Assembly (NCBI GenBank): GCA_025058345.1
Contig: JANXEN010000004.1
Location: 50,929 to 114,928 of the forward strand
Reading direction: 5' to 3'
DNA from: Sulfolobales archaeon
GTDB lineage: Archaea > Thermoproteota > Thermoprotei_A > Sulfolobales > NBVN01
Length of the DNA stretch: 64,000 nt
The notes under the pieces are model-generated. The model was given only the letters and a program-made list of their open reading frames with translations, made no database searches and was not told the DNA's origin. Both the position numbers and the translations under genes were made by a program. Below are positions 2,263-58,073 of the stretch, piece after piece. Numbering within the stretch: position 1 is the first letter of the stretch; every line of letters begins with the position of its first letter.

Positions 2263-3549
2263 TTGAAATACTTAACGTTTATAAGGGTTTTAGGTAGAAG
2301 TAAGAAGGTGGTTATTGTGAGTGTTCAAAAGTCCTTAGTTGGTGTATTGATTGTCTTGGTTATCGTTGCTGGTGTTGGCGGTTATTTCGCAGGTTCTTCA
2401 GCCGCCCCACCGCCGAGGACTATAACCTCAGTAGTCACTCAAACAGTAACTACTACTGTTGCAGCAGCTACAGTAACACGTACTGTAACTACAACACTCC
2501 CAGCTCAGACAGTAACTTCAACAGTAACACTACCACAGCAAACGATCACAATAACAGTAACTAGAACACCAACTCCAACACCTACTGTAACTCCAATACC
2601 TCCATCGCCGCCACCATATTGGCCGAAAGAAATTATAATAAGAGTTGGTGGTATCGGAGGCGCCTGGTATCCGATTGGCGCCGGATTAGGAGACCTGATT
2701 TCCAAACATCTTAAAGTTCAGTCCACAGTTCAGCCAGGTGGTTCAGGCCCTAATATATTAGCCTTATCTAAGAATGAAGCTGATATTGGGATGGCTTATG
2801 CTTGGCAGTCTGCGGTTGCTAAAGACGAGAGAGCTGCGAGGGAGTATTGGGGAGAGCCTATAAACTTCAGTAACGTAAAACTTCTTGCTGGGGGACTTTA
2901 TAGTCAGGTCTACCAGGCGGTGAAGCTTAAGGGGTTCCCAGCAAATAACTTCAAAGAATTAGCTGATATGGTTAAGGCAGGACAGAGGGTAGCTATAGGC
3001 ACTAACATTAGAGGTACTGCTGAGGAATATACTGTTAGGACTTTGCTTGCTAGATATGGAGTAACGTATGATGATATTAGAAGAGCTGGAGGTACGGTAT
3101 TCCTAGGTGCTCATACAGATGTTGTTCAAATGATGAGGGAAGGTAAGATACAGGTTTATGTTGCTTTCGGTGGTGTCCCATACAGTGCGATGGTTGAAGC
3201 CGATACAACGATGGAGTTAGAACCATTTACATTGACTGAGGAAGAGTTTAAGTTCATGACTGAAAGCTTCGGCTTCAAGAGAACTGTAATACCGAAGGGT
3301 TCTTATAGGTGGGTTAAGGTGGATTATCCAACAATAACTGATTATCCAGTCTTTCTATGTAGGGCTGGGCTGCCAGATGACTTTGTCTACTTCGCTGCCA
3401 GGCTTCTTGACGAGTATAAAGACACAATTTCGGCGGCTGCGAAGTATTTTGCTGAATACGACCCAAGTAAGGGATGGCAGTTAGGTGGTTTATGGGACCT
3501 CCATCCAGGGGCAGCTAAGTACTATAAAGATAAAGGCTATATGCCTTAA
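2263..3549 (+). CDS. TAXI-family TRAP-type solute-binding protein, membrane-anchored via an N-terminal helix and a Thr/Val/Pro-rich stalk
   Basis: N-terminal TM segment (LVGVLIVLVIVAGVGGYF). About 65-aa T/V/P low-complexity linker. TAXI-like core beginning IIIRVGGIGGAWYPIGAGLGDLISKHL. Confidence 0.75.
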   Translation: MKYLTFIRVLGRSKKVVIVSVQKSLVGVLIVLVIVAGVGGYFAGSSAAPPPRTITSVVTQTVTTTVAAATVTRTVTTTLPAQTVTSTVTLPQQTITITVTRTPTPTPTVTPIPPSPPPYWPKEIIIRVGGIGGAWYPIGAGLGDLISKHLKVQSTVQPGGSGPNILALSKNEADIGMAYAWQSAVAKDERAAREYWGEPINFSNVKLLAGGLYSQVYQAVKLKGFPANNFKELADMVKAGQRVAIGTNIRGTAEEYTVRTLLARYGVTYDDIRRAGGTVFLGAHTDVVQMMREGKIQVYVAFGGVPYSAMVEADTTMELEPFTLTEEEFKFMTESFGFKRTVIPKGSYRWVKVDYPTITDYPVFLCRAGLPDDFVYFAARLLDEYKDTISAAAKYFAEYDPSKGWQLGGLWDLHPGAAKYYKDKGYMP

Positions 3550-6771: not shown

Positions 6772-7965
6772 GTCTTTAGGGATAATTGAAGATGCGTATG
6801 GAAGTATTAATACATCACCACTACCAACTAATTCAAAGCCGTATTTAATTGCTGTCTCCACATTATTTGCTTTTTTATATAGCTTAGACTCCTTAATATT
6901 ATTTGACACTATTACTATTTCTGACTTAGTAGCTATTCTAGCTATAGCATATGCCTTATGGTATCCTAAATCGAATTTCTCTTTAATAAAATTAATCACA
7001 TCCTCAGGCCCCATATTCGAGTATATAATTTCCTCCGTCTTATTTTCTCCAATACCCTCTTTACACTCAGCAAGTAGTATGATCACACCTCCAGGTCTTA
7101 CACATTTAAATGCTACCTCTAACGCTTTATGAGCCTGATACAGATTAATGTCCTTAGGATATCCCCCAGGTGATGCGACAACTATGTCGTATTTCCTGCC
7201 AATTTCAACCCCGTATAACTCATTAAACATTTTAACTGCTTCTCTATGCGCCTTTATAAAGTGTCCAGAAAAACAACCTAAAATCTCCTTACTCTCACTT
7301 AAGACTACATTTACGATGAAGTTAAGGTCAGCCATGCTTGCAGCTTCCTCTATATCCATTCTAACAGGATTCCCATCTATACGTCCTAATTCTGCTCCTG
7401 GCAGTAACATCATCTTATGGTTTTCCTTTATGCTCTCGTACGAAGCTATGCCTGGAAGTATGCTCTTGCCACCGCCACTATATCCAGCGAAGTAGTGGGG
7501 GTCAACATTAGCTATGGCTATCTTTAAATCCGAATTAAGTGCTAATGAGTTAATGGATATAGGTGTCCCTCGACTGGTTTTACCTAAGTAACTTAAGGAA
7601 TTAAAGTCTCTGCAGTCATGGTCTAGAACTCTGAAATTATTAAATATGTCAACACCTAACAGTTTAATCCATTCACCTACGGTATGCCGCCTATGTATCC
7701 CTGTAGCAAAGATTATGTATATATTTTCTTTTCGCACACCTAAGGAAAGCAATCTATTTACAACTACAGGAACTATCTTACTTGTAGGGCAAGGTCTAGT
7801 TATATCACTTACTATTAACGTGACTGTCGAATTAGTATCTAATAATTCCCTCAAATTTGTCTGGTCGATGGGGTTATCAAGAGACTTGGAAATGATCTCT
7901 ACTTCATCTTTAGGCCCTGGTATATGTTTTGGTGTTATGGTAGTAGCACTTAAATGTTCGATCAT
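6763..7965 (-). CDS. larA: LarA-family (nickel-pincer cofactor dependent) 2-hydroxyacid racemase/epimerase homologue
   Basis: Motifs SDITRPCP, ATGIHR, PHYFAGYSGGGKSILPG, ENHKMM and YQAHKAL match the LarA catalytic/NPN-binding positions as I recall them. A conserved N-terminal strand (FSIPYG) lies upstream of the listed ATG (see findings). Confidence 0.75.
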   Translation of the reverse strand: MIEHLSATTITPKHIPGPKDEVEIISKSLDNPIDQTNLRELLDTNSTVTLIVSDITRPCPTSKIVPVVVNRLLSLGVRKENIYIIFATGIHRRHTVGEWIKLLGVDIFNNFRVLDHDCRDFNSLSYLGKTSRGTPISINSLALNSDLKIAIANVDPHYFAGYSGGGKSILPGIASYESIKENHKMMLLPGAELGRIDGNPVRMDIEEAASMADLNFIVNVVLSESKEILGCFSGHFIKAHREAVKMFNELYGVEIGRKYDIVVASPGGYPKDINLYQAHKALEVAFKCVRPGGVIILLAECKEGIGENKTEEIIYSNMGPEDVINFIKEKFDLGYHKAYAIARIATKSEIVIVSNNIKESKLYKKANNVETAIKYGFELVGSGDVLILPYASSIIPKDLI

Positions 7966-8116
7966 TATATAGCTATTGCCGTACGGAATCGAAAATTTCG
8001 TATCCTACACCTCTAACATCACGTAATAAATTTCTTCATTAAGTTATAAATGTAATTATCAATGATGATTATCTGTTCGTGGTGTTAAGATTTTTAAATT
8101 TGATAAATAAAGTGTA

Positions 8117-16267: not shown

Positions 16268-16933
16268 CTACTCAACTCTTTGGATGTGAGTATCCTCTAG
16301 TTGCTTAAGTCCTTTACCCCTCACAGTCTTAGCGAATATTACAGCCGGTTTCCTAGATCTAATCGCTCCATCTAAAGCCGATACGATACTCGCGACTGCA
16401 TGGCCGTCGCATAGGAAGACCTCCCACCCAACAGTTCTCCATATCAACGGCATATAATGCTTAGGTTTTACCTCAGATAATTTTCCATCTAATTGGTATC
16501 CATTAAAATCTATAATTACGATCAAGTTATCTAAACCCCTATGTACTGCATCCGTCATAGCCTCCCACACCTGACCCTCGTCCTGCTCACCATCACCCAT
16601 AACAACATAAACCCTACCTACACCCCCTCTGGACTTAATCCATGAGGCAACACCCATCCCGAAACTCAGTCCCTGCCCTAGACTGCCTGTAGACATATCA
16701 ACTCCAGGTATAGCTATGTCTGGATGTCCCTGAAGTATAGAATCCAGTGACTGCAACTTCATTAACTCCCCGTAATGTATCGACCCAATATCTGCTAGTA
16801 AAGCATATAGTGCCGGAGCTGCATGACCTTTACTGAGCACCAACCAATCTTTGGTTAATGGATCGCCACTCAGCCTGATATATCTCTTAAGAAGTACTGT
16901 TAAGATCTCAACACAACTTAATGTAGAACCCAT
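16268..16933 (-). CDS. Transketolase, N-terminal section (TPP-binding); true start probably upstream of the listed ATG
   Basis: Motifs [11 protein letters not shown] and [13 protein letters not shown]. The frame stays open to 17095 and encodes the family-typical N-terminal helix, but with no ATG/GTG/TTG (see findings). Confidence 0.85.
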
Positions 16934-17185
16934 GTGGAGGTTCTTTTCATAATGATGGATGTCGATTATTAGTTTTCTGACTTTCTCTGAAGTAAGTTCT
17001 AATTGGGTATATTCTTCTACTTTATATTTTGGAATTGCATCGCCTACACCAAGAATTATATGATACAGTTGCTGGGGTATATAACCTTTTTGTTTTTAAT
17101 TAATTAAATAAATTTCATTATCCATCAACGCATATAAGATGGAAATTAATTTAATTATAGTAAAGCATAATAACTAGACTTTATT

Positions 17186-25793: not shown

Positions 25794-26201
25794 TCATTCC
25801 TTAATTACATCAAGTATTATCGATGGACATACCTTCTTAACTCCCGGCATGTTAGAAATCTCCTTATGTATCTTAGCCATATTGTCACTGTCTTTAGCCC
25901 AAATCGTCGCTATTATAGGGTGATCACCACTCGTTAAAGATAAATACTTAACGTAATCCCGCGTTTTAAGGCCGGTAAGCACGTCGTAGAGAAATTGAGG
26001 ATCTACGTCAATACCTGTAATCGATACAGACTTATATTCCAATTTCCTTGGGTCAAGGACAGCTGTATATTTTTTAATAACTCCTAGGTTTTCCAGCCTT
26101 TTAATTCTCTTAATTACAGCTACATCGCTTATACCTACTTCCTTAGCAATCTCCACGTAGGAGGTTCTTGCATTGTTGGTAAGTATTGAAATTATCTTCA
26201 T
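25794..26201 (-). CDS. Lrp/AsnC-family transcriptional regulator; start probably upstream of the listed ATG
   Basis: HTH ARTSYVEIAKEVGISDVAVIKRIKRLENLGVIKKY plus a C-terminal RAM domain. An in-frame upstream segment ELLDEKD completes the family N-terminus (see findings). Confidence 0.85.
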   Translation of the reverse strand: MKIISILTNNARTSYVEIAKEVGISDVAVIKRIKRLENLGVIKKYTAVLDPRKLEYKSVSITGIDVDPQFLYDVLTGLKTRDYVKYLSLTSGDHPIIATIWAKDSDNMAKIHKEISNMPGVKKVCPSIILDVIKE

Positions 26202-26239
26202 ATCCTTCTCATCTAGTAACTCAGATATTTTAAGTCACC

Positions 26240-26572
26240 TCAACAATAACAATATTTTTTAACGCATTCAAATATAAATTTATTGTTTAAGGCATTCACG
26301 TATGAAACTTCCTCCATTCTACTCACTTTCCGCAATCTATGTAACGTGCAATATTCAACCACATGTAAAACTTCATTTCGACCTACTTCTACATCATTTA
26401 TAAGAGGTTCATAAGTTTTACGATTAGAAACTACCATATCCTTCACTTTAAAGTACTCATCTGAGTTAATGGGTCCTGACATGAAGATCTTAGATAAGTG
26501 ATTTATCGACTTTAATTTCAAGTCTTCAACTATATAGATATGAGTACGCATAACTTCACCTAATTTTTTCAT
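26240..26572 (-). CDS. Hypothetical protein (110 aa)
   Basis: ORF only; no motif recognised. Confidence 0.4.
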   Translation of the reverse strand: MKKLGEVMRTHIYIVEDLKLKSINHLSKIFMSGPINSDEYFKVKDMVVSNRKTYEPLINDVEVGRNEVLHVVEYCTLHRLRKVSRMEEVSYVNALNNKFIFECVKKYCYC

Positions 26573-28472: not shown

Positions 28473-29750
28473 TTAAGCTTCAACTACTTGAATGAGTTCC
28501 TTCTGAGATAGTTTAGTAGCTCTTAAGTATTTGCTGCTGACGTTTCTTAAATCTCTGTTTTCCCCCATGATCATTACGGTGACTAACTTGACCCCTAACG
28601 CCTTTAATTTTCTCCTAATCAAGTGTTCTGATATTCTATCCTCTCCATCCGTTATTAAAATTATGTCTGAGATACCTTTGCTGTTTCCGAACCTTATGTC
28701 GTCACAGGCGGTGACTAAGGCCTTAGTTATGTCCGTCCCACCACCACTTTTAACTCTAGCCAAATAGTCTATAAATGAAAGGACTTCATTACTTCTTAAT
28801 CTCTTTGATATCTTAACTAACTGGTGTGGTGAGCCGTCAAAAAATCTTATGAAGTATTCCCTACGTTCTTTTCTTGATTTCATATACAGAGCGATTGCTG
28901 TTGCCTTAGCCCACTTAATTTTATCTCCCTCCATGCTGCCTGATTTATCAAGTAATACGTAGAGGGGACCTCTACTCTCAGGTAATGCTTTATCATAAAG
29001 TAATAGTTTACCTTCAGATATTTTCATATTTAGGTAAAATTTAGGATAGATAAGTTCTGTAGGTACTAATCTCTCAACATCTGAGCCTAACTCATAGCCA
29101 TGCAACTCGCCTTTAGAGGACTTAGTGGTTTTCCTTTTAACTTTGTGAGAAATTTTAGGAATCCATGAGACTACCTCCAATAATTTCTTAACGTCAGTTG
29201 ACTTAGCAAGTCTTAATACATCTTCAGCGCTTTCCTCTAAGTCTAATGTAGTACCTGTACCAGCTTCATTACCTTCACTAAGCATTTTCTCTACATTCTT
29301 TAACACGTCCCCTTCCTCCTTAACGTACTTTAATGCATTATTAACAGCCTTTCTTAGGGTACCTCCATCAACTTCGCTAATTTCGCGATTTATATCTCCC
29401 TCATTTCCTTTTCCATAGGTCAATTCTTCATTTAGGTGTTGTAGGAAACTGGCCGACAATAAAACGCTCATCATAGAGTTAATTAATGTATGTCTTTTAA
29501 TATCCTTTAAAACATCGCTAGATATTAACTCCTTAATTACTTTATAGTTTTTCTCCTTCCCGTACGGTATGCTTGTTTGAGGTATTAATACAGGGAAAGG
29601 TAAGTACATAGCGTAGTAGGTATCGATAGCTAGTTCTAGGTCAGTCTTTATATGTCCCTTGCTAAGCCTCCAGGCTATGTTTGATACCTTCTCACCGCGG
29701 TATATAACTAGAGGGTCCTCATACTTAATCCCTTTAAGAACCCCAGGCAT
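28473..29750 (-). CDS. VWA-domain protein, ViaA-like partner of the upstream RavA-like ATPase
   Basis: C-terminal VWA with MIDAS LLDKSGSMEG, plus GGGTD and ILITDGED. The start overlaps the ATPase stop as TAATG at 29750. Confidence 0.8.
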   Translation of the reverse strand: MPGVLKGIKYEDPLVIYRGEKVSNIAWRLSKGHIKTDLELAIDTYYAMYLPFPVLIPQTSIPYGKEKNYKVIKELISSDVLKDIKRHTLINSMMSVLLSASFLQHLNEELTYGKGNEGDINREISEVDGGTLRKAVNNALKYVKEEGDVLKNVEKMLSEGNEAGTGTTLDLEESAEDVLRLAKSTDVKKLLEVVSWIPKISHKVKRKTTKSSKGELHGYELGSDVERLVPTELIYPKFYLNMKISEGKLLLYDKALPESRGPLYVLLDKSGSMEGDKIKWAKATAIALYMKSRKERREYFIRFFDGSPHQLVKISKRLRSNEVLSFIDYLARVKSGGGTDITKALVTACDDIRFGNSKGISDIILITDGEDRISEHLIRRKLKALGVKLVTVMIMGENRDLRNVSSKYLRATKLSQKELIQVVEA

Positions 29751-32062
29751 TAGGTAATCCTACCCCTTATCATTTCCATAGCCGTATCTATCAACCCTAT
29801 AACTTCATTAGCTACCTTTTCAACATCCTTATTACTACTTTCAAGCATTAGACTAATCACTCTCTCCTTAGTAACTTCTAGATCCCTGTATATTTCTCTA
29901 AATCTCATCTCGACAAACCTTGATTCAACGTTACGCAGTGATGAAACGTAATTAAGTATTTCCTTTACATTAACCTTTATCTCGTTAAGTTCTCTTAGAT
30001 ACTTGTATGGAGTCTTAAGCTCTTCTGAAAGTATCGTGTTAACTTTATCTAATTCTTCTTGGTCCTTCGGAACAACGTACTTTATAACTATTAAATCATC
30101 TTCATTAGCTACAGCCCTACCATTCATCATTGCATGAGCAGCAATTATCTTTAAAGTCTTTCCCTTCCTTCTATCGGTTACGTGTATACCTCTCCCTTCA
30201 AGAACTGCAAGCAGTTTAACGAATTTACTTTTAATGGCATCTACGTTTACGCTTAAAACACTCTTATGTAACTCTCTTAAATGGTCAATCGTCATAATCT
30301 TACCTTCCCTACCATACCCATCCGTAAGGCTTAGTTTAACCTCTAAGTCCCAAGACTTACTCAACAAATCATGCCATAGATCTTCACTAACCGGCTTTAC
30401 GAAGTGCCTCATGGTGAACCTATCGTAGAATGCCTCAGTTTCAGGTTCGTCAGGTACCTCATTACTTGCACCAAATAAACTCCAAAGAGGTACTTTAATT
30501 TCGCTATATCCATCATATAGAATCCTTTCTTGAAGTATGGTATTCAATGAGTTAAGGATCGCTGAGTTCGCCTTAAAAATTTCGTCTAAGAAAGCTATAT
30601 CAGCCTCAGGTAACTTACCATACGTTATCCTAACATACTTCCCTTCATGTAACGCCCTTATATCGAGAGGTCCGAAAATTTCAGCCGGTTCAGTAAAACG
30701 CGTTAATAAGTACTTGAAGAATTTAGCTTCGAGTAGATCTGCAGCCCTACGCACTAAGGCTGACTTAGCAGTATTATGTGAGAGTAAACCGTTAGTGAAG
30801 AAGGCATGAGTTACCGGGATGTGGAAGTCGTAGACATTGAATGAACCACTAATGAAGCTTACGTCATATACTGCATCAAAGATTGGTTGCTTCTTTAACT
30901 GAGACTTTAAGTATTTTTGGCCATCACTTAACGATTTAATTAACGATGCTAATGCTGCGTTTTTAGTAGGAGATATAAACCCTATATCATCTTTAAACTT
31001 TTTAAGTCCATCAACGTCGGAAATCTCTAAGATGCCAACACATCTAGACCCTTTAAATTTAACAATACAGTTATTTGACCTAACCCTAGCAATTATTCCA
31101 TGTCTTAATAACAGCACTTGAACCTCTCTTAACAAATCATCTTTAAGACCCTCTAAAATTAAATAACTACCGTAGTTGTAAGATGGTGATGTAGCATATA
31201 ATAAATTCCCGCACGTCTCAAAGAGAGCCCTTAAAAACGCTCCAGACACCCTCCTAGGCGACTCTAATACTACCTTCGGAATTCTATTTTTATCAGAACC
31301 GATGATTAATGCCTTAAGTATGTTACGGAGGTATGGACTATTGATTCTTACATTCTCTACTACGGATACGTCATATTTATTCGTAGTTTTTCTTACTTCG
31401 GTTATGAGGTCTTTACCTATTACTCTATATATTAAATTGATTGTGTGGTTAATGAGGAAGTCCTCACCCTCTTTGAAACTGAATTCTACGTAATCGCCAA
31501 CTAAAGCACCTCTTATGAGGAATATTCCAAGCAATTCACTTAGTAACTCATCAAATAATATATATTGGTAATCAAATCTGGAGTCAAGCATTACACTCCT
31601 TGCAGGAATTCTAATTAAATCTGTAGGGGATGGGATCTGTGAAATTAGTCTAACCCTATCACCAGGTCTTAATGATTTAGCCTCTACCCAACCTCTATCA
31701 GTCATTATAGGATGATTGGGGGTCACTTCTAAGGAGAAACCTAAGTTAGTGGTAACTCTAACGACTTCCCTCACCTTATATATATGGAGTTGAGTAGCCT
31801 CCGCATTCGGTAGAACAGGAAAGGAAACATCGTAAACCCCGGTGGGGAGTCCGGAGGCGATATCGTCAATGTGGTATAACTTCCCATCATAACTGCTTAT
31901 CAACGTATTTCCTACTACACAGCCAGGCTCACCTATAAATGTGCAATGCTCCCGAGCTAGGAGCGTCAATACTACGACTTTAGCCTCCTCATCACGTCCT
32001 ATGAAGGGATCTTTCAAAACATCTAAGAACGTTCTCAATCTATCAACTAATTCACTCATCAC
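29750..32062 (-). CDS. RavA/MoxR-like AAA+ ATPase interrupted by an intein in the Walker A loop
   Basis: The extein reads FIGEPG|TAKSALVRR...YLLTRFTEPAEIFGPLDIRALHEGKYVRITYGKLPEADIAFLDEIFKANSAILNSLNTILQER. This closely parallels the E. coli RavA core as I recall it. Extein is 387 aa, intein 383 aa. Confidence 0.85.
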   Translation of the reverse strand: MMSELVDRLRTFLDVLKDPFIGRDEEAKVVVLTLLAREHCTFIGEPGCVVGNTLISSYDGKLYHIDDIASGLPTGVYDVSFPVLPNAEATQLHIYKVREVVRVTTNLGFSLEVTPNHPIMTDRGWVEAKSLRPGDRVRLISQIPSPTDLIRIPARSVMLDSRFDYQYILFDELLSELLGIFLIRGALVGDYVEFSFKEGEDFLINHTINLIYRVIGKDLITEVRKTTNKYDVSVVENVRINSPYLRNILKALIIGSDKNRIPKVVLESPRRVSGAFLRALFETCGNLLYATSPSYNYGSYLILEGLKDDLLREVQVLLLRHGIIARVRSNNCIVKFKGSRCVGILEISDVDGLKKFKDDIGFISPTKNAALASLIKSLSDGQKYLKSQLKKQPIFDAVYDVSFISGSFNVYDFHIPVTHAFFTNGLLSHNTAKSALVRRAADLLEAKFFKYLLTRFTEPAEIFGPLDIRALHEGKYVRITYGKLPEADIAFLDEIFKANSAILNSLNTILQERILYDGYSEIKVPLWSLFGASNEVPDEPETEAFYDRFTMRHFVKPVSEDLWHDLLSKSWDLEVKLSLTDGYGREGKIMTIDHLRELHKSVLSVNVDAIKSKFVKLLAVLEGRGIHVTDRRKGKTLKIIAAHAMMNGRAVANEDDLIVIKYVVPKDQEELDKVNTILSEELKTPYKYLRELNEIKVNVKEILNYVSSLRNVESRFVEMRFREIYRDLEVTKERVISLMLESSNKDVEKVANEVIGLIDTAMEMIRGRIT
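30773..31921 (-). mobile_element. Intein (383 aa) with LAGLIDADG-type endonuclease-like insert, located between G and T of the GEPG-TAKS P-loop
   Basis: Cys1 (CVVGNTLI). Block B TPNHPIMT. LAGLIDADG-like helices LLGIFLIRGAL and FLRALFETCGNL. Block F/G VYDFHIPVTHAFFTNGLLSHN followed by +1 Thr. Boundary codons checked on the sequence (TGT at 31921-31919, AAT at 30775-30773). Confidence 0.85.
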
Positions 32063-32155
32063 TTTAAACCTCGTAACTCCAGTAGATTTGTTCTTGCAAA
32101 CCTTAAAAATCTAGGTAATTAAGATTAAAAACCTAAATCATAATAAAATTGATAA

Positions 32156-35347: not shown

Positions 35348-35648
35348 CTTCACAACGTTTAAAAATTATAGCTTTGTTGGACCTACGAACCTCCTAATCT
35401 GGTATAAATTGCATATATTTTTACTAATTTCGGTGTCGAAAACATTGAAACCGCCATTAAGGATTTATTAATCGAGTGGAACCACATATACCACTTAGGG
35501 ATTTTGGCCTAAGCATCGTTGAATAAATCATTCCTTGAGATAACTATTTTACTACCGACTCCATAGAGTTTTTAGATTGTGGTGATTAAGTATTAGGTAT
35601 GTCTACATATCGTGGGATAATGCAGTTAAGCTGTCCTACGAATTAGCT

Positions 35649-36215
35649 ATGAAAGTTAGTGAAAGTAATTACCTACCAGATGTAATTGTTGCTGTTTCCA
35701 GGGGTGGTTTGATACCAGCCCGAATCGTTAGCGATGTTATGAATGTAGATGGAGTTCATAGCATTAAGGCTAGTCTATGGGGAGTAGGTGGTAGGATCTC
35801 TAATGAGGTATTAATTCACGGCGTCGAGTTACCTATTAAGGATAAAAAGGTATTGATAGTTGATGATGTGGTTGATAGTGGTTTAACCTTAATTAAGATA
35901 GTGAGTCACGTTAAAAGCTTCGGCCCTATAGATGTTAGAACCGCAGTACTTCATGTAAAGCCTTCATCCAAATACCTACCTGATTACTATGTAAGTAAGT
36001 TGGATGAGTGGCTATGGGTCATCTATCCTTGGACTTCTTTAGAAGTTTTATACTCAGTTTTACACAAGCACTACGGCTGTAAAGTCAAGGATTTTGATGT
36101 GGATGCATTAATTAACGAATTCTACAAGTTAACTGGTGTTGGCTTAACCCAGAATCAGCGAGATTTATTAGCCGTAGCTAAGAAACATTATTTAAGTGCT
36201 TTATGTAGAGGTTGA
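35649..36215 (+). CDS. Type I purine phosphoribosyltransferase (HGPRT/XPRT-like); start probably upstream of the listed ATG
   Basis: PRPP motif VLIVDDVVDSGLT and AVSRGGLIPARIVSD. An in-frame upstream YVYISWDNAVKLSYELA completes the family N-terminus (see findings). Confidence 0.8.
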   Translation: MKVSESNYLPDVIVAVSRGGLIPARIVSDVMNVDGVHSIKASLWGVGGRISNEVLIHGVELPIKDKKVLIVDDVVDSGLTLIKIVSHVKSFGPIDVRTAVLHVKPSSKYLPDYYVSKLDEWLWVIYPWTSLEVLYSVLHKHYGCKVKDFDVDALINEFYKLTGVGLTQNQRDLLAVAKKHYLSALCRG

Positions 36216-38195: not shown

Positions 38196-38212
38196 ATAAG
38201 TTTTAACGGCAT
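38196..38212 (+). promoter_or_regulatory. 17-nt element ATAAGTTTTAACGGCAT overlapping a TATA-like box; an identical copy at 56784-56800 lies upstream of the nucleotidyltransferase gene
   Basis: Both copies read directly from the sequence. Both lie 14-25 nt upstream of a gene start on the + strand. Confidence 0.4.
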
Positions 38213-53600: not shown

Positions 53601-55088
53601 TTAACTCCTTAGACTTATTAATACTTGAGCATGGGGATCTGCTGATTCGAACTTAAATGATACTATGTTACTGTAATCACTTAGGTCTATTACGTTCTTC
53701 CCTATACTGATATCCACTATGTCTGTGTTATGGAGTGTTGGAGGTAGTCCGAGGTCATAATCATATATCTTTAAATAATTATCCCTTGTAGCTTTAACAT
53801 ACATAGACGCCTTCCTATAATTGTTAATGGGTATACCACCCCATGCAGAGTTACCTACGATGTTACCAGACACCCTAATGATGTTAGGTAAATCGGAGCA
53901 CCTCAGTACGTTATCGATATTTAGGGTCATTAAGTCTCTCTCACCTATGTCGTATGGTGTGGCATCATCTGCGCCTAGGTTAGCCATAGTGTTGCAACCT
54001 AATATTAATTTACTTCCTACATGTTCTATGGACGTTACGCGTGCACCGAAAGAACCTAAGACCTTAACTGTGGGTGGAGTTATGTAAAGTATGTTTGAAG
54101 TTGTTGGAACGTAGTTTAAAGTCCTAGCTATTTCTTTCAATTCCGCGTTCGAGGTCTTCATTATGGCGTGGGTATATGAGTTGAAGGGTATTGCAATACC
54201 ACCTCCTATAATCACGTGATTAGTTCTTATCGGTCCGTAATCTTTCTTCGAAAAATCGTAAAGCCTTATGAAATGCAGGCTCTCCTTTCCACTCTCTGAA
54301 GGGTCAAAAATTATCACACCACCTCTGACGAATACGAATAACCTCCCATACGCGGCTGCAATAGAGCCCACCTGCAGTGGCCTTGAAGTACCTTCGCCAT
54401 CAACTGAAACGTCCTTTAAATCATTACTTAATTCTATATACCTCCAATCACCTTTAACTAAGTCAAGGCATTGAATGCCATATATTCCGTTAATTCCTAC
54501 TGAGATATCGAAGCAGGCCATGTCCCCTATTACCGCACCCTTCATGCTTGGTTTATTGCTCAATAAATCCGTTCTGTAATTCTTCATATCTAAGCTGTAG
54601 ACACCTAATGACCTACTTCCATCAGCTCTTGAAATAAGTAACCTCACATTCAGTGGATCGAAAGCTAAGGAAGACACTTCACCGACCCACTCATTCTTCA
54701 ATCCTGCAGTATCTTTCCATAGAAGGTCAACCCTCCCTTCATGTACGTCATATGAATGAATGTGTGAGTACTTATTAGTGAAGTCTATTCTCCCATAACC
54801 ATTCAACGCTTCATACTTAGCAGGGCAGTTAATCCAACCACCGAAATATATCTTATTATCAACTGCCTCCACGGCGTTGTAGGTGTCTCCACCTGACCTA
54901 GGTTCCGGGCCTAAAAGGTCGAAGTTATAGACCTTAAATCCTTCTTTACTTATAAAATACGCCTCAGCATCGAATGATAGGGTGAAGTAAAGCACATTCA
55001 TATGGAACTTTAATCCGAAGATGCCGCCTGAACCCCATTCAGGACCTTTCCTCGGCCTAAACCTATAGATAGGTAAATCCAACAACAA
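53601..55088 (-). CDS. Conserved-looking hypothetical protein (495 aa), probably co-transcribed with glgA
   Basis: The start lies 6 nt after the glgA stop on the same strand. Beta-rich sequence with repeated G-x-hydrophobic strands. No family recognised. Confidence 0.6.
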   Translation of the reverse strand: MLLDLPIYRFRPRKGPEWGSGGIFGLKFHMNVLYFTLSFDAEAYFISKEGFKVYNFDLLGPEPRSGGDTYNAVEAVDNKIYFGGWINCPAKYEALNGYGRIDFTNKYSHIHSYDVHEGRVDLLWKDTAGLKNEWVGEVSSLAFDPLNVRLLISRADGSRSLGVYSLDMKNYRTDLLSNKPSMKGAVIGDMACFDISVGINGIYGIQCLDLVKGDWRYIELSNDLKDVSVDGEGTSRPLQVGSIAAAYGRLFVFVRGGVIIFDPSESGKESLHFIRLYDFSKKDYGPIRTNHVIIGGGIAIPFNSYTHAIMKTSNAELKEIARTLNYVPTTSNILYITPPTVKVLGSFGARVTSIEHVGSKLILGCNTMANLGADDATPYDIGERDLMTLNIDNVLRCSDLPNIIRVSGNIVGNSAWGGIPINNYRKASMYVKATRDNYLKIYDYDLGLPPTLHNTDIVDISIGKNVIDLSDYSNIVSFKFESADPHAQVLISLRS

Positions 55089-56714: not shown

Positions 56715-56894
56715 TCGTAGTTAACGTATAATAATGTTTTATACAGCAATCATTATCTAAATATAGTCAATTAAAAAATGTTTATAAGTTTTAACGGCAT
56801 ATAAATACATGGGGTTCTTATTATAGGGGATTCTAATTTATCTAAAGCGATAATACCTATAGGGGGATTAGGGACAAGACTATACCCCTTAACT

Positions 56895-58073
56895 GTGGAT
56901 ACTTCTAAGGCAATGATTAGGTTCTTAAATAGGAATCTCATAGACTTCACGATAATGAAGTTAGCCAGGCAGGGAATTAGGGAATTCTATCTCGGGGTTA
57001 GTGGTTACGTAAATTATGTGGGGTTGTTTGACCACTTAGGTAGCGGTGAAGCCTTTGCTTATAAATTGAACCTACACGACAGTGAAATTAGGGTTAGATA
57101 CCAACCTAACATCGAATCTAGAGGTAATGCGGAATCTGTTAAATTAATTATGGATTACTACGACTTGAATGAAGACTTGGTGGTTGTTCAGGGGGATACT
57201 TTATTTGATGTAGCCCTAAGCGACTTGTACTACTTCCATAAGGATAAAGGGGCTTACATGACCATCGTGCTTAAGGAATTGGAAGATGAGTCTAAACTTA
57301 GGCACTTCGGTGTTGCAGATATTAATCCTGACGGTCAAATATTAAGGTTTGTGGAAAAGCCGCAGACCCCTTCGGAAGCGCCATCCAACCTCATAAATAC
57401 TGGAATATACATAGTGTCTGCAGAGTTTAGGGATTTCTTCAGCAGTGGTGTAGGTAAGAATCTTTATGAGGCCGGTGAATTAGATTTCGGGAGGAATGTA
57501 ATTCCTGCCTTAATAGATTGTGGATTAAAAGTTTATGGTTATGTATCCAAAGGGCTGTGGTTCGATATCGGTAACCCAGATGCTTATAAGGAATCGGTGC
57601 ATTATATGTTAAGAGCTTTAAGCGATGAAGAACTAAATGTTGACTTCTCATATTCTGGAATTAGGTTCATGGGTAAGACGGCACTCTCTAGGAAACTTCA
57701 GAGGAACATCATTGATAGATTAGAGAAAGGCGACTTAAAGATTGAGGGTGACGTACTTCTAGGTAGGCACATCTTTCTAGGAAACGGTGTTAAGATACTA
57801 AACTCAGTGATAGATCACTACACAGTAGTAAATGATGAGACGTTTATTGACGACTCCATAATCATGGATAGGTGCTTCTTAGGGGGTAGGACCGTCATAA
57901 TTAACAGTATTATAGGGAGGCATGTGAAGATAGGTAATAACGTAACAATTAAGAATAGCTTAATAGGTAATAACGTATTTATAGGCAATAATGCAGTAGT
58001 AATAAATTCTAAGATATGGCCCCAAAAATACGTCGCACCCCATCAGATACTAAAAGATAGCGTAGTGACGTAA
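56895..58073 (+). CDS. Sugar-1-phosphate nucleotidyltransferase with C-terminal left-handed beta-helix; start upstream of the listed GTG
   Basis: The glycine-rich signature KAIIPIGGLGTRLYPLT lies in frame upstream (56844-56894) of the first canonical start. Other motifs are VVQGDTLF and EKPQ. C-terminal hexapeptide repeats (IGNNVxI). Confidence 0.8.
   Translation: MDTSKAMIRFLNRNLIDFTIMKLARQGIREFYLGVSGYVNYVGLFDHLGSGEAFAYKLNLHDSEIRVRYQPNIESRGNAESVKLIMDYYDLNEDLVVVQGDTLFDVALSDLYYFHKDKGAYMTIVLKELEDESKLRHFGVADINPDGQILRFVEKPQTPSEAPSNLINTGIYIVSAEFRDFFSSGVGKNLYEAGELDFGRNVIPALIDCGLKVYGYVSKGLWFDIGNPDAYKESVHYMLRALSDEELNVDFSYSGIRFMGKTALSRKLQRNIIDRLEKGDLKIEGDVLLGRHIFLGNGVKILNSVIDHYTVVNDETFIDDSIIMDRCFLGGRTVIINSIIGRHVKIGNNVTIKNSLIGNNVFIGNNAVVINSKIWPQKYVAPHQILKDSVVT

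Follow-up and report, generated by a model that had tools for sequence, protein, structure and literature searches.

The window, by which we mean the whole 64,000-nt stretch of DNA that was analysed, carries on its forward strand a gene predicted to encode a sugar-1-phosphate nucleotidyltransferase. Its neighbours are a divergently transcribed GT5 glycogen synthase gene, a downstream GH57 enzyme gene and an alpha-glucan phosphorylase-like gene, and this synteny is kept in relatives. Directly downstream of the glycogen synthase gene, and on the same strand as it, lies a gene for a DUF2139 protein that is conserved in archaea (E 3e-124; 53601-55088, reverse strand); it could belong to the glycogen cluster as a component of uncharacterised role. 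The features of the nucleotidyltransferase locus, together with those of the other window genes considered below, are listed in Table 1.

Table 1. Features of the nucleotidyltransferase locus and of other genes in the window
Feature	Position	Strand	Details
TATA box TTTATAAG	56781..56788	+	TATA-like 8-mer, found in 16/16 orthologous promoters; putative promoter element, judged by archaeal geometry
In-frame TAA	56802..56804	+	Closes the enzyme frame on its 5' side
ATG mini-ORF MGFLL*	56809..56826	+	One base out of frame; ATG followed by G4; stop TAG at 56824-26
G-run GGGG	56811..56814	+	First G is the predicted transcription start
ATT, proposed start codon	56820..56822	+	+10 from the predicted transcription start, 5 nt after the G-run
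ATA, alternative or second start codon	56823..56825	+	+13 from the predicted transcription start
GGLGTRL nucleotide-binding loop	56862..56882	+	5' of the first canonical start
GTG	56895..56897	+	First canonical start; 392-aa gene call
Proposed CDS, sugar-1-phosphate nucleotidyltransferase	56820..58073	+	417 aa from ATT 56820, stop included
Starts with the TATA-22 nt-GGG layout	13236, 47903, 15249, 5722, 36269, 50585, 45811		Canonical codon at +7 to +12
Phosphoribosyltransferase (PRTase)	35579-35649	+	Shine-Dalgarno GTGGTGA, 6 nt, ATT 35592; next canonical start is ATG 35649
Lrp/AsnC regulator	26201-26245	-	GAGGTGA, 6 nt, ATA 26228; first ATG 26201 is residue 10, within the first HTH helix
LarA/Mar2-like protein	7965-8020	-	GAGGTG, 6 nt, ACG 8001; frame opens at 8004
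Transketolase N-terminal subunit	16933-17095	-	54 codons without ATG/GTG/TTG; first ATG within the GH-G thiamine-diphosphate motif

The protein matched the Pfam family NTP_transferase (PF00483) with an E value of 4.6e-37 and a score of 128.3 bits, compared to a gathering cut-off of 21.2, over profile positions 1-237 of 245; this domain is followed by C-terminal left-handed beta-helix domains, and 264 homologues were found at E ≤ 1e-30. Profile position 1 aligned with residue 14 of the extended frame (K 56844), which indicates that the homologous N-terminus and its G-loop truly lie upstream of the first canonical start. NCBIfam placed the protein among the NDP-sugar pyrophosphorylases. RmlA-long, GlgC-like and archaeal GlmU-type NDP-sugar synthases share with it the full PF00483 domain from the G-x-G-T-R-L loop onwards and the C-terminal hexapeptide repeats, but the window protein falls under every NCBIfam equivalog cut-off. 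With 133.7 bits against the 424.9 of the glgC equivalog TIGR02091, it is GlgC-like by context only, and the glycogen cluster, as the sole pointer to the substrate, suggests glucose-1-phosphate. In the best explanation of the locus, the gene encodes a functional sugar-1-phosphate nucleotidyltransferase of the glycogen gene cluster.

After the in-frame TAA the enzyme frame (frame 0) reads IHGVLIIGDSNLSKAIIPIGGLGTRLYPLT, and the first ATG, GTG or TTG in it is the GTG at 56895. The near-cognate codons in this frame are ATA 56805, ATT 56820 and ATA 56823. A preliminary description, made from the letters alone, had reported the TAA, the frame, these near-cognates, the ATG at 56809, the G4 run and the TATA-like element, and on rechecking all of these were correct. 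Its central claim, that the first canonical start comes only after the codons of the nucleotide-binding loop, was likewise borne out by the position of the Pfam domain and of GGLGTRL. At a canonical-type codon frequency of 0.044, the chance of 30 codons without a canonical start is about 0.26. The start-less gap alone is not improbable; what exceeds chance is a conserved catalytic segment inside the gap, repeated in 16 orthologues.

These orthologues comprise 16 distinct loci, i.e. the window and 15 others at 52-96 % amino acid identity, and the 15 other 5' regions were taken from species-representative genomes, JGI metagenomes and Logan/ENA assemblies, which are independent samples. Over the 17 codons at 56844-56894 the pN/pS was 0.062, and from K 56844 up to the GTG every one of the 17 third positions varies, compared to only two of the 17 second positions. 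The loop motif GGLG[TV]RL is present in all 16 sequences, the sole difference being a T to V exchange in L044, and synonymous change was seen at every third codon position of the motif. The low pN/pS and the bias of the variation towards third positions indicate that the segment is protein-coding in the enzyme frame. On this codon-level evidence, the comparison shows a segment upstream of the GTG that is evidently translated, that has no canonical start and in which an ATT, ATA or ATC codon (ATH) is kept in position and frame.

The GTG at 56895 is, in our reading, a false start chosen by gene callers. If the protein did begin there it would be a loop-less inactive or regulatory paralogue, unless the locus were a pseudogene or the product of an assembly error. 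Gene callers did pick the GTG start in seven relatives, and seven of the 12 closest database proteins (P0001, P0005, P0006, P0008, P0010, P0011 and P0044) are called at 385-392 aa, cut in the same way as that of the window. However, seven of the 16 orthologues have GTA, a non-start, in place of the GTG, the constraint on the codons before it and the near-invariant loop are those of a translated catalytic segment, and the entire 420-aa frame is unbroken in every relative. A contig that is 96 % identical (L039), assembled from the independent run SRR7039829, contains the identical ATGGGGTT and CATGGGGTT with the same G4, and the start-less state is common to all orthologues. Both a sequencing or assembly error (G4 for G5) and a pseudogene or loop-less paralogue, which the preliminary description had offered as options, were rejected on these grounds, and the loop, whose loss from orthologues it had regarded as the sign of a degenerate paralogue, was present in all of them. 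Initiation at the GTG is the least likely of the readings considered here.

In each of the 16 orthologues the G-run begins 28-31 nt after the first base of the TATA box, mostly 30 nt as in the window, and the run itself takes forms such as GGG, GGGG, GGGAG and GGTGGG. Archaeal TATA boxes are centred near -26/-27, and this spacing therefore predicts a transcription start at the first G, which is 56811 in the window. The G-run, which would open a 9-nt leader, may in addition function as a weak Shine-Dalgarno-like element. At least seven other promoters of the window share the arrangement of TATA, 22 nt and GGG and have their ATG, GTG or TTG start at +7 to +12, and in about half of the window genes a G-rich Shine-Dalgarno-like motif precedes the start by 3-9 nt, most often by 5-7 nt. 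Among the leaderless genes of the window, the distance from TATA to ATG was too noisy to separate a transcription start at 56809 from one at 56811. An Rfam search of the nucleotidyltransferase leader gave no credible match.

A fixed layout of TATA 8-mer, 22 nt, GGG and a start at +4 to +12 is common to many first genes, and was noted before 13236, 47903, 15249, 5722, 36269, 50585 and 38226. If the first G is the transcription start, such mRNAs would carry leaders of 3-11 nt that open with a Shine-Dalgarno-like element, and these G-started short leaders would be an unusual type between leaderless and Shine-Dalgarno-led mRNAs. An exact 17-mer, ATAAGTTTTAACGGCAT, occurs at 56784-56800 and again at 38196-38212 (both forward strand), and its offset from the TATA box is identical in the two promoters. 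The second copy lies in the promoter of an operon for a MacB-type ABC transporter, which comprises ABC_tran, a CARDB-domain protein of 980 aa and MacB_PCD/FtsX. The 17-mer is not conserved in the orthologous nucleotidyltransferase promoters except that of L039, and it could be the site of a shared regulator or the result of a promoter duplication.

The TATA-22 nt-GGG template of the window puts the start codon at the very positions that ATT 56820 (+10) and ATA 56823 (+13) occupy. Within the zone from +8 to +14, a frame-0 ATT, ATA or ATC was found in 15 of the 16 orthologues, in each case beginning at +9 to +13, compared to one of the 16 in each of the other two frames, and canonical frame-0 starts are absent from this zone in all 16. 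When near-identical sequences were collapsed to 13 groups, the counts were 12/13 against 2/26 (Fisher p 2.8e-7), a value that overstates independence through the kinship of the sequences and that is weakened further by ATH being common, at 8 % of codons. In five orthologues (L004, L018, L020, L006 and L048) a stop codon directly precedes the ATT, and there can thus be no earlier frame-0 initiation there. Three sequences (L038, L041 and L044) have an in-frame TTG or GTG farther upstream, at or before the predicted transcription start; the GTG at +2 in L044 and the TTG at -2 in L038 could serve instead in those genomes. More distant relatives at 53-55 % identity (P0012, P0019 and L007) begin at a called Met, which is an ATG in L007.

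Taken together, this evidence suggests that translation of the nucleotidyltransferase probably starts at ATT 56820, or at ATA 56823, on a short G-started leader. Such an ATH start would be kept across a family-level clade of uncultured hot-spring archaea that resemble Sulfolobales and Desulfurococcaceae. The preliminary description had argued that something non-standard must happen at the locus, and of its options non-canonical initiation is the one that is retained, as are the two codons, which it had already named; slippage on the G-run, a sequencing error and a pseudogene are not. By sequence alone the two codons are indistinguishable: column 56823 is ATH in all six of the closest relatives (the window, L039, L003, L001, L038 and L040), compared to only three of the six at column 56820.

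The sole exception among the 16 is L002, in which an ATT stands at +10 but one base out of frame. Its region 2960-3020 has ATG-GGA-TGT-TAA in the enzyme frame, which closes that frame, and the first TATA-like box is followed 18 nt later by another, GTATAAG. The deviation is probably an indel in a co-assembled MAG, the other possibility being a real inactivation.

A further observation speaks against an ATH start. In the six closest relatives the frame-0 triplets before it, GGG-[GA]TT-CT[TAG], differ in a codon-like manner (G-V/I-L), mostly at third positions, which would fit translation from farther upstream. A frame-0 start elsewhere could be ATA 56805, the first near-cognate named in the preliminary description, or a start on the terminal GGG codon that depends on the 5' end. 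Besides the apparent codon constraint on G-[VI]-L-I in these six relatives, the TAA-ATA common to the window, L039 and L003 is in its favour. However, ATA 56805 precedes the predicted transcription start by 6 nt, and its place is taken by TTA in L001, L038 and L040; we know of no precedent for initiation on GGG; and frame 0 is closed up to the ATT in the five orthologues named above. We consider a start at either of these sites quite unlikely.

The ATG at 56809 was also assessed as a source of the protein. It occupies -2 to +1 of the predicted transcription start, so that if transcription begins at the first G its A and T are probably untranscribed, and its mini-ORF probably does not function as a start. 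The orthologues commonly have T or C at -1, and NTG triplets at the G-run therefore arise often. Such a triplet overlies the run in frame 1 in six sequences (the window, L039, L003, L001, L045 and L048) and in frame 0 in three of the 16 (L002, L038 and L044), and it is absent from seven of the 16 (L040, L004, L018, L020, L006, L005 and L041).

A leaderless mRNA from A 56809 would nevertheless place an AUG at the 5' end, and two routes to the enzyme could be drawn from it: the tRNA-Gly might slip by -1 on G-GGG (AUG-GGG to GGG-GUU) to give MGVLIIGDS, or the MGFLL mini-ORF might be followed by re-initiation at AUU or AUA. The product of a frameshift, or of a G5 run, would begin MGVLIIGDSNLSK rather than at the ATH codon. 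NTG-GGR with the enzyme frame at -1 is found in the window, L039, L003, L001 and L045, and G-GGG or G-GGA would let tRNA-Gly re-pair in five sequences; the canonical X-XXY-YYZ heptamer is absent. The residues MG[VI]LI of the slip product are those of frame 0 and resemble MGVLIKEF, the start of the gene call P0004; that call begins at a TTG overlapping the G-run and predicted transcription start, and is not a G5 product. For re-initiation, inspection showed that the stop of the mini-ORF overlaps (AUAG) or abuts the ATH codon in the window, L039, L003 and L045.

A -1 frameshift is known from a crenarchaeal gene, fucA1 of Saccharolobus solfataricus, which is similar in that its intact product is not readable from a single canonical ORF. 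There a conserved slippery heptamer inside the gene reportedly joins two long ORFs by programmed -1 frameshifting, whereas the out-of-frame element of the present locus is a mini-ORF of 3-6 codons at the predicted transcription start, conserved neither in frame nor in presence. Against frameshifting or re-initiation, moreover, stand the sequences in which the NTG is missing or already in frame 0, the NTG of L048 that runs straight into a stop, the enzyme frame that is closed up to the ATT in five orthologues, and the position of the ATG relative to the transcription start predicted from the 30-nt TATA spacing. Stimulatory structure was not detected: the 5' 90 nt (56811-56900) fold no better than shuffled sequences at 37 °C (z -0.99), and at 75 °C 14 of the 16 orthologues have no fold in their first 32 nt.

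Slippage from ATG 56809, or a G5 run that would bring it into frame, had been proposed in the preliminary description and was not upheld, given the same G4 in L039, the unconserved NTG frame and the lack of structure. As a general mechanism a -1 frameshift from this ATG was rejected, on the inconsistent NTG frame, the stop before the ATT in five orthologues and the same want of structure; downstream slippery sites (A-AAA-AAC in L004, A-AAT-TTC in L006, with a GGG-initiated frame) were discarded because they are not common to the groups. For the subclade of the six closest relatives, frameshifting or re-initiation is unlikely, and the small chance that we leave to it is owed to the third-position-biased GGG-[GA]TT-CT[TAG] of those sequences.

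An extra G could also be added during transcription, if RNA polymerase slipped on the template C-run and turned AUGGGG into AUGGGGG, with the ATG then in frame. The G-run would lie at +3 to +6 of the putative leaderless transcript, which is where reiterative transcription acts in bacteria (pyrBI and pyrG), and with a G added the ATG would come into frame in the window, L039, L003, L001 and L045. However, these are only five of the 16 orthologues, the runs are merely 3-5 nt long, a literature search did not find the mechanism documented for an archaeal RNA polymerase, and the ATH model covers 15 of the 16 with one mechanism. We regard this reading as very unlikely.

In predicted folds at 37 °C, the G-run pairs with pyrimidines that follow it by 10-20 nt, with the ATH codons in the loop. 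The pairing in the window (56811-56834) is GGGGUUCUU/AUUAUA/GGGGAUUCU, and it recurs loosely in about 10 of the 16 sequences. A 5'-terminal hairpin presenting AUU-AUA in its loop was nonetheless rejected as a candidate, since it lacks significance (z mostly above -2) and is lost at 75 °C.

Under the preferred reading, that of an ATH start, transcription would begin at the first G of GGGG (56811), 30 nt past the first base of the TATA box, and would produce the 9-nt leader GGGGUUCUU, the G-run of which might serve as a weak Shine-Dalgarno element. ATT or ATA would presumably be read as Met by the initiator tRNA, and the expected N-terminus would be MIGDSNLSK from the ATT or MGDSNLSK from the ATA, with or without the initial Met. 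Such a start probably keeps translation of the first cistron low or dependent on the stringency of initiation. A weak start on the first cistron of a glycogen operon could hold the committed step of glycogen synthesis at a low level that depends on stringency.

Near-cognate initiation itself is known. In Escherichia coli the pcnB gene starts at AUU, and genetic code table 11 includes ATT, ATC and ATA among the possible starts. Bacterial infC, the gene for IF3, has an AUU start that is the basis of IF3 autoregulation (PMC4705826). The nucleotidyltransferase resembles infC and pcnB in that the AUU would stand at normal spacing after a ribosome-binding element, would start a full-length essential or metabolic protein, and is kept without reversion to AUG. 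It differs in several respects: archaeal initiation proceeds by aIF1, aIF1A and aIF2 rather than IF3; the third base varies between T, A and C among the archaeal orthologues; and the enzyme is no initiation factor, so that the autoregulatory logic of infC is not directly applicable. For archaea, a review gives AUG, GUG and UUG as the only start codons (PMC7531240), and aIF1 of S. solfataricus discriminates against AUU in vitro and excludes AUU-mRNA from the 30S complex (PMC4705826). Efficient initiation at AUU would therefore require that little of the protein is needed or that discrimination is relaxed in this lineage. In a search of full-text literature, AUH starts that are conserved or frequent in archaea were not found described, an absence that is weak evidence as subscription journals were mostly outside the search. 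What we regard as new is that such a start seems to be in stable, clade-wide use in a metabolic gene of archaea and to be frequent in the lineage, both as judged from sequence comparison.

The latter point comes from a check of window ORFs with long stretches before the first canonical start, which gave four further cases. The phosphoribosyltransferase frame opens two codons before ATT 35592, and the initial Met of the orthologues P0128 (MKYVYISW) and P0130 (MRYIYISWD) aligned exactly with this ATT. Two relatives at 73 and 62 % identity (L049 and L050) have AGGTGA, 6 nt and ATC, and AGGTGG, 6 nt and ATT, respectively. A Shine-Dalgarno element followed after 6 nt by ATT, ATC and ATT in three genomes, at the position of Met in distant orthologues, makes this an independent second case of a putative ATH start, and the protein would begin M-RYVYISWDNAVK. 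For the Lrp/AsnC regulator, position 1 of Pfam HTH_AsnC and Met-1 of Pyrococcus furiosus LrpA (1i1g) aligned at residues 4-5. The LarA/Mar2-like gene may start at ACG 8001; homology to the malate racemase PDB 6d6z runs from residue 5, and the first ATG is residue 14. In the N-terminal subunit of transketolase, residue 27 is the first with homology to PDB 6yak, a split-chain TKT, and the candidate start is ATT 17035, after GGTGTAGG.

With the nucleotidyltransferase included, this suggests that five of about 55-60 window genes (approximately 8 %) are without a canonical start. Compared to E. coli, the apparent frequency is far greater, with four or more further genes of the 64 kb apparently behaving in this way. 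Two weaker candidates were also seen, both on the forward strand: AGGTGG, 4 nt and ATC 60986 in the gene for a PD-(D/E)XK protein, and GGGA, 5 nt and ATT 19013 in a homocitrate/isopropylmalate synthase-like gene, for which a TTG five codons later is equally possible. No unusual initiator tRNA was found in the window, where a tRNA-Pro is the only tRNA present.

It is conceivable, and we put it forward tentatively, that the lineage has a widened start repertoire, in which AUU, AUA and AUC, and perhaps ACG, at the normal Shine-Dalgarno distance would be stable starts for several per cent of genes. If this is true, start-codon discrimination by aIF1, aIF2 or the initiator tRNA would be relaxed or altered compared to Saccharolobus and Pyrococcus. 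AUH kept at 52-96 % identity, a second gene in three genomes and the roughly 8 % suggested for 64 kb would together show that the stringency of start-codon choice depends on the lineage, which would then offer a natural system for the study of aIF1-dependent fidelity. The same repertoire would mean that standard gene callers systematically cut the N-termini of such genes; in the present case, callers of the Prodigal type remove the catalytic loop. The NCBI pipeline (PGAP) sets ad hoc non-canonical starts, as in ATA for P0002 (MPIGG) and CTG for P0121. As a result of such N-terminal cuts and ad hoc ATA or CTG starts, metabolic reconstructions from MAGs may score functional genes as defective.

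Elsewhere in the window, the gene for a MoxR-type AAA+ ATPase (29750-32110, reverse strand) contains an apparent intein, with Intein_splicing and LAGLIDADG_3 matches between residues ~100 and 446.
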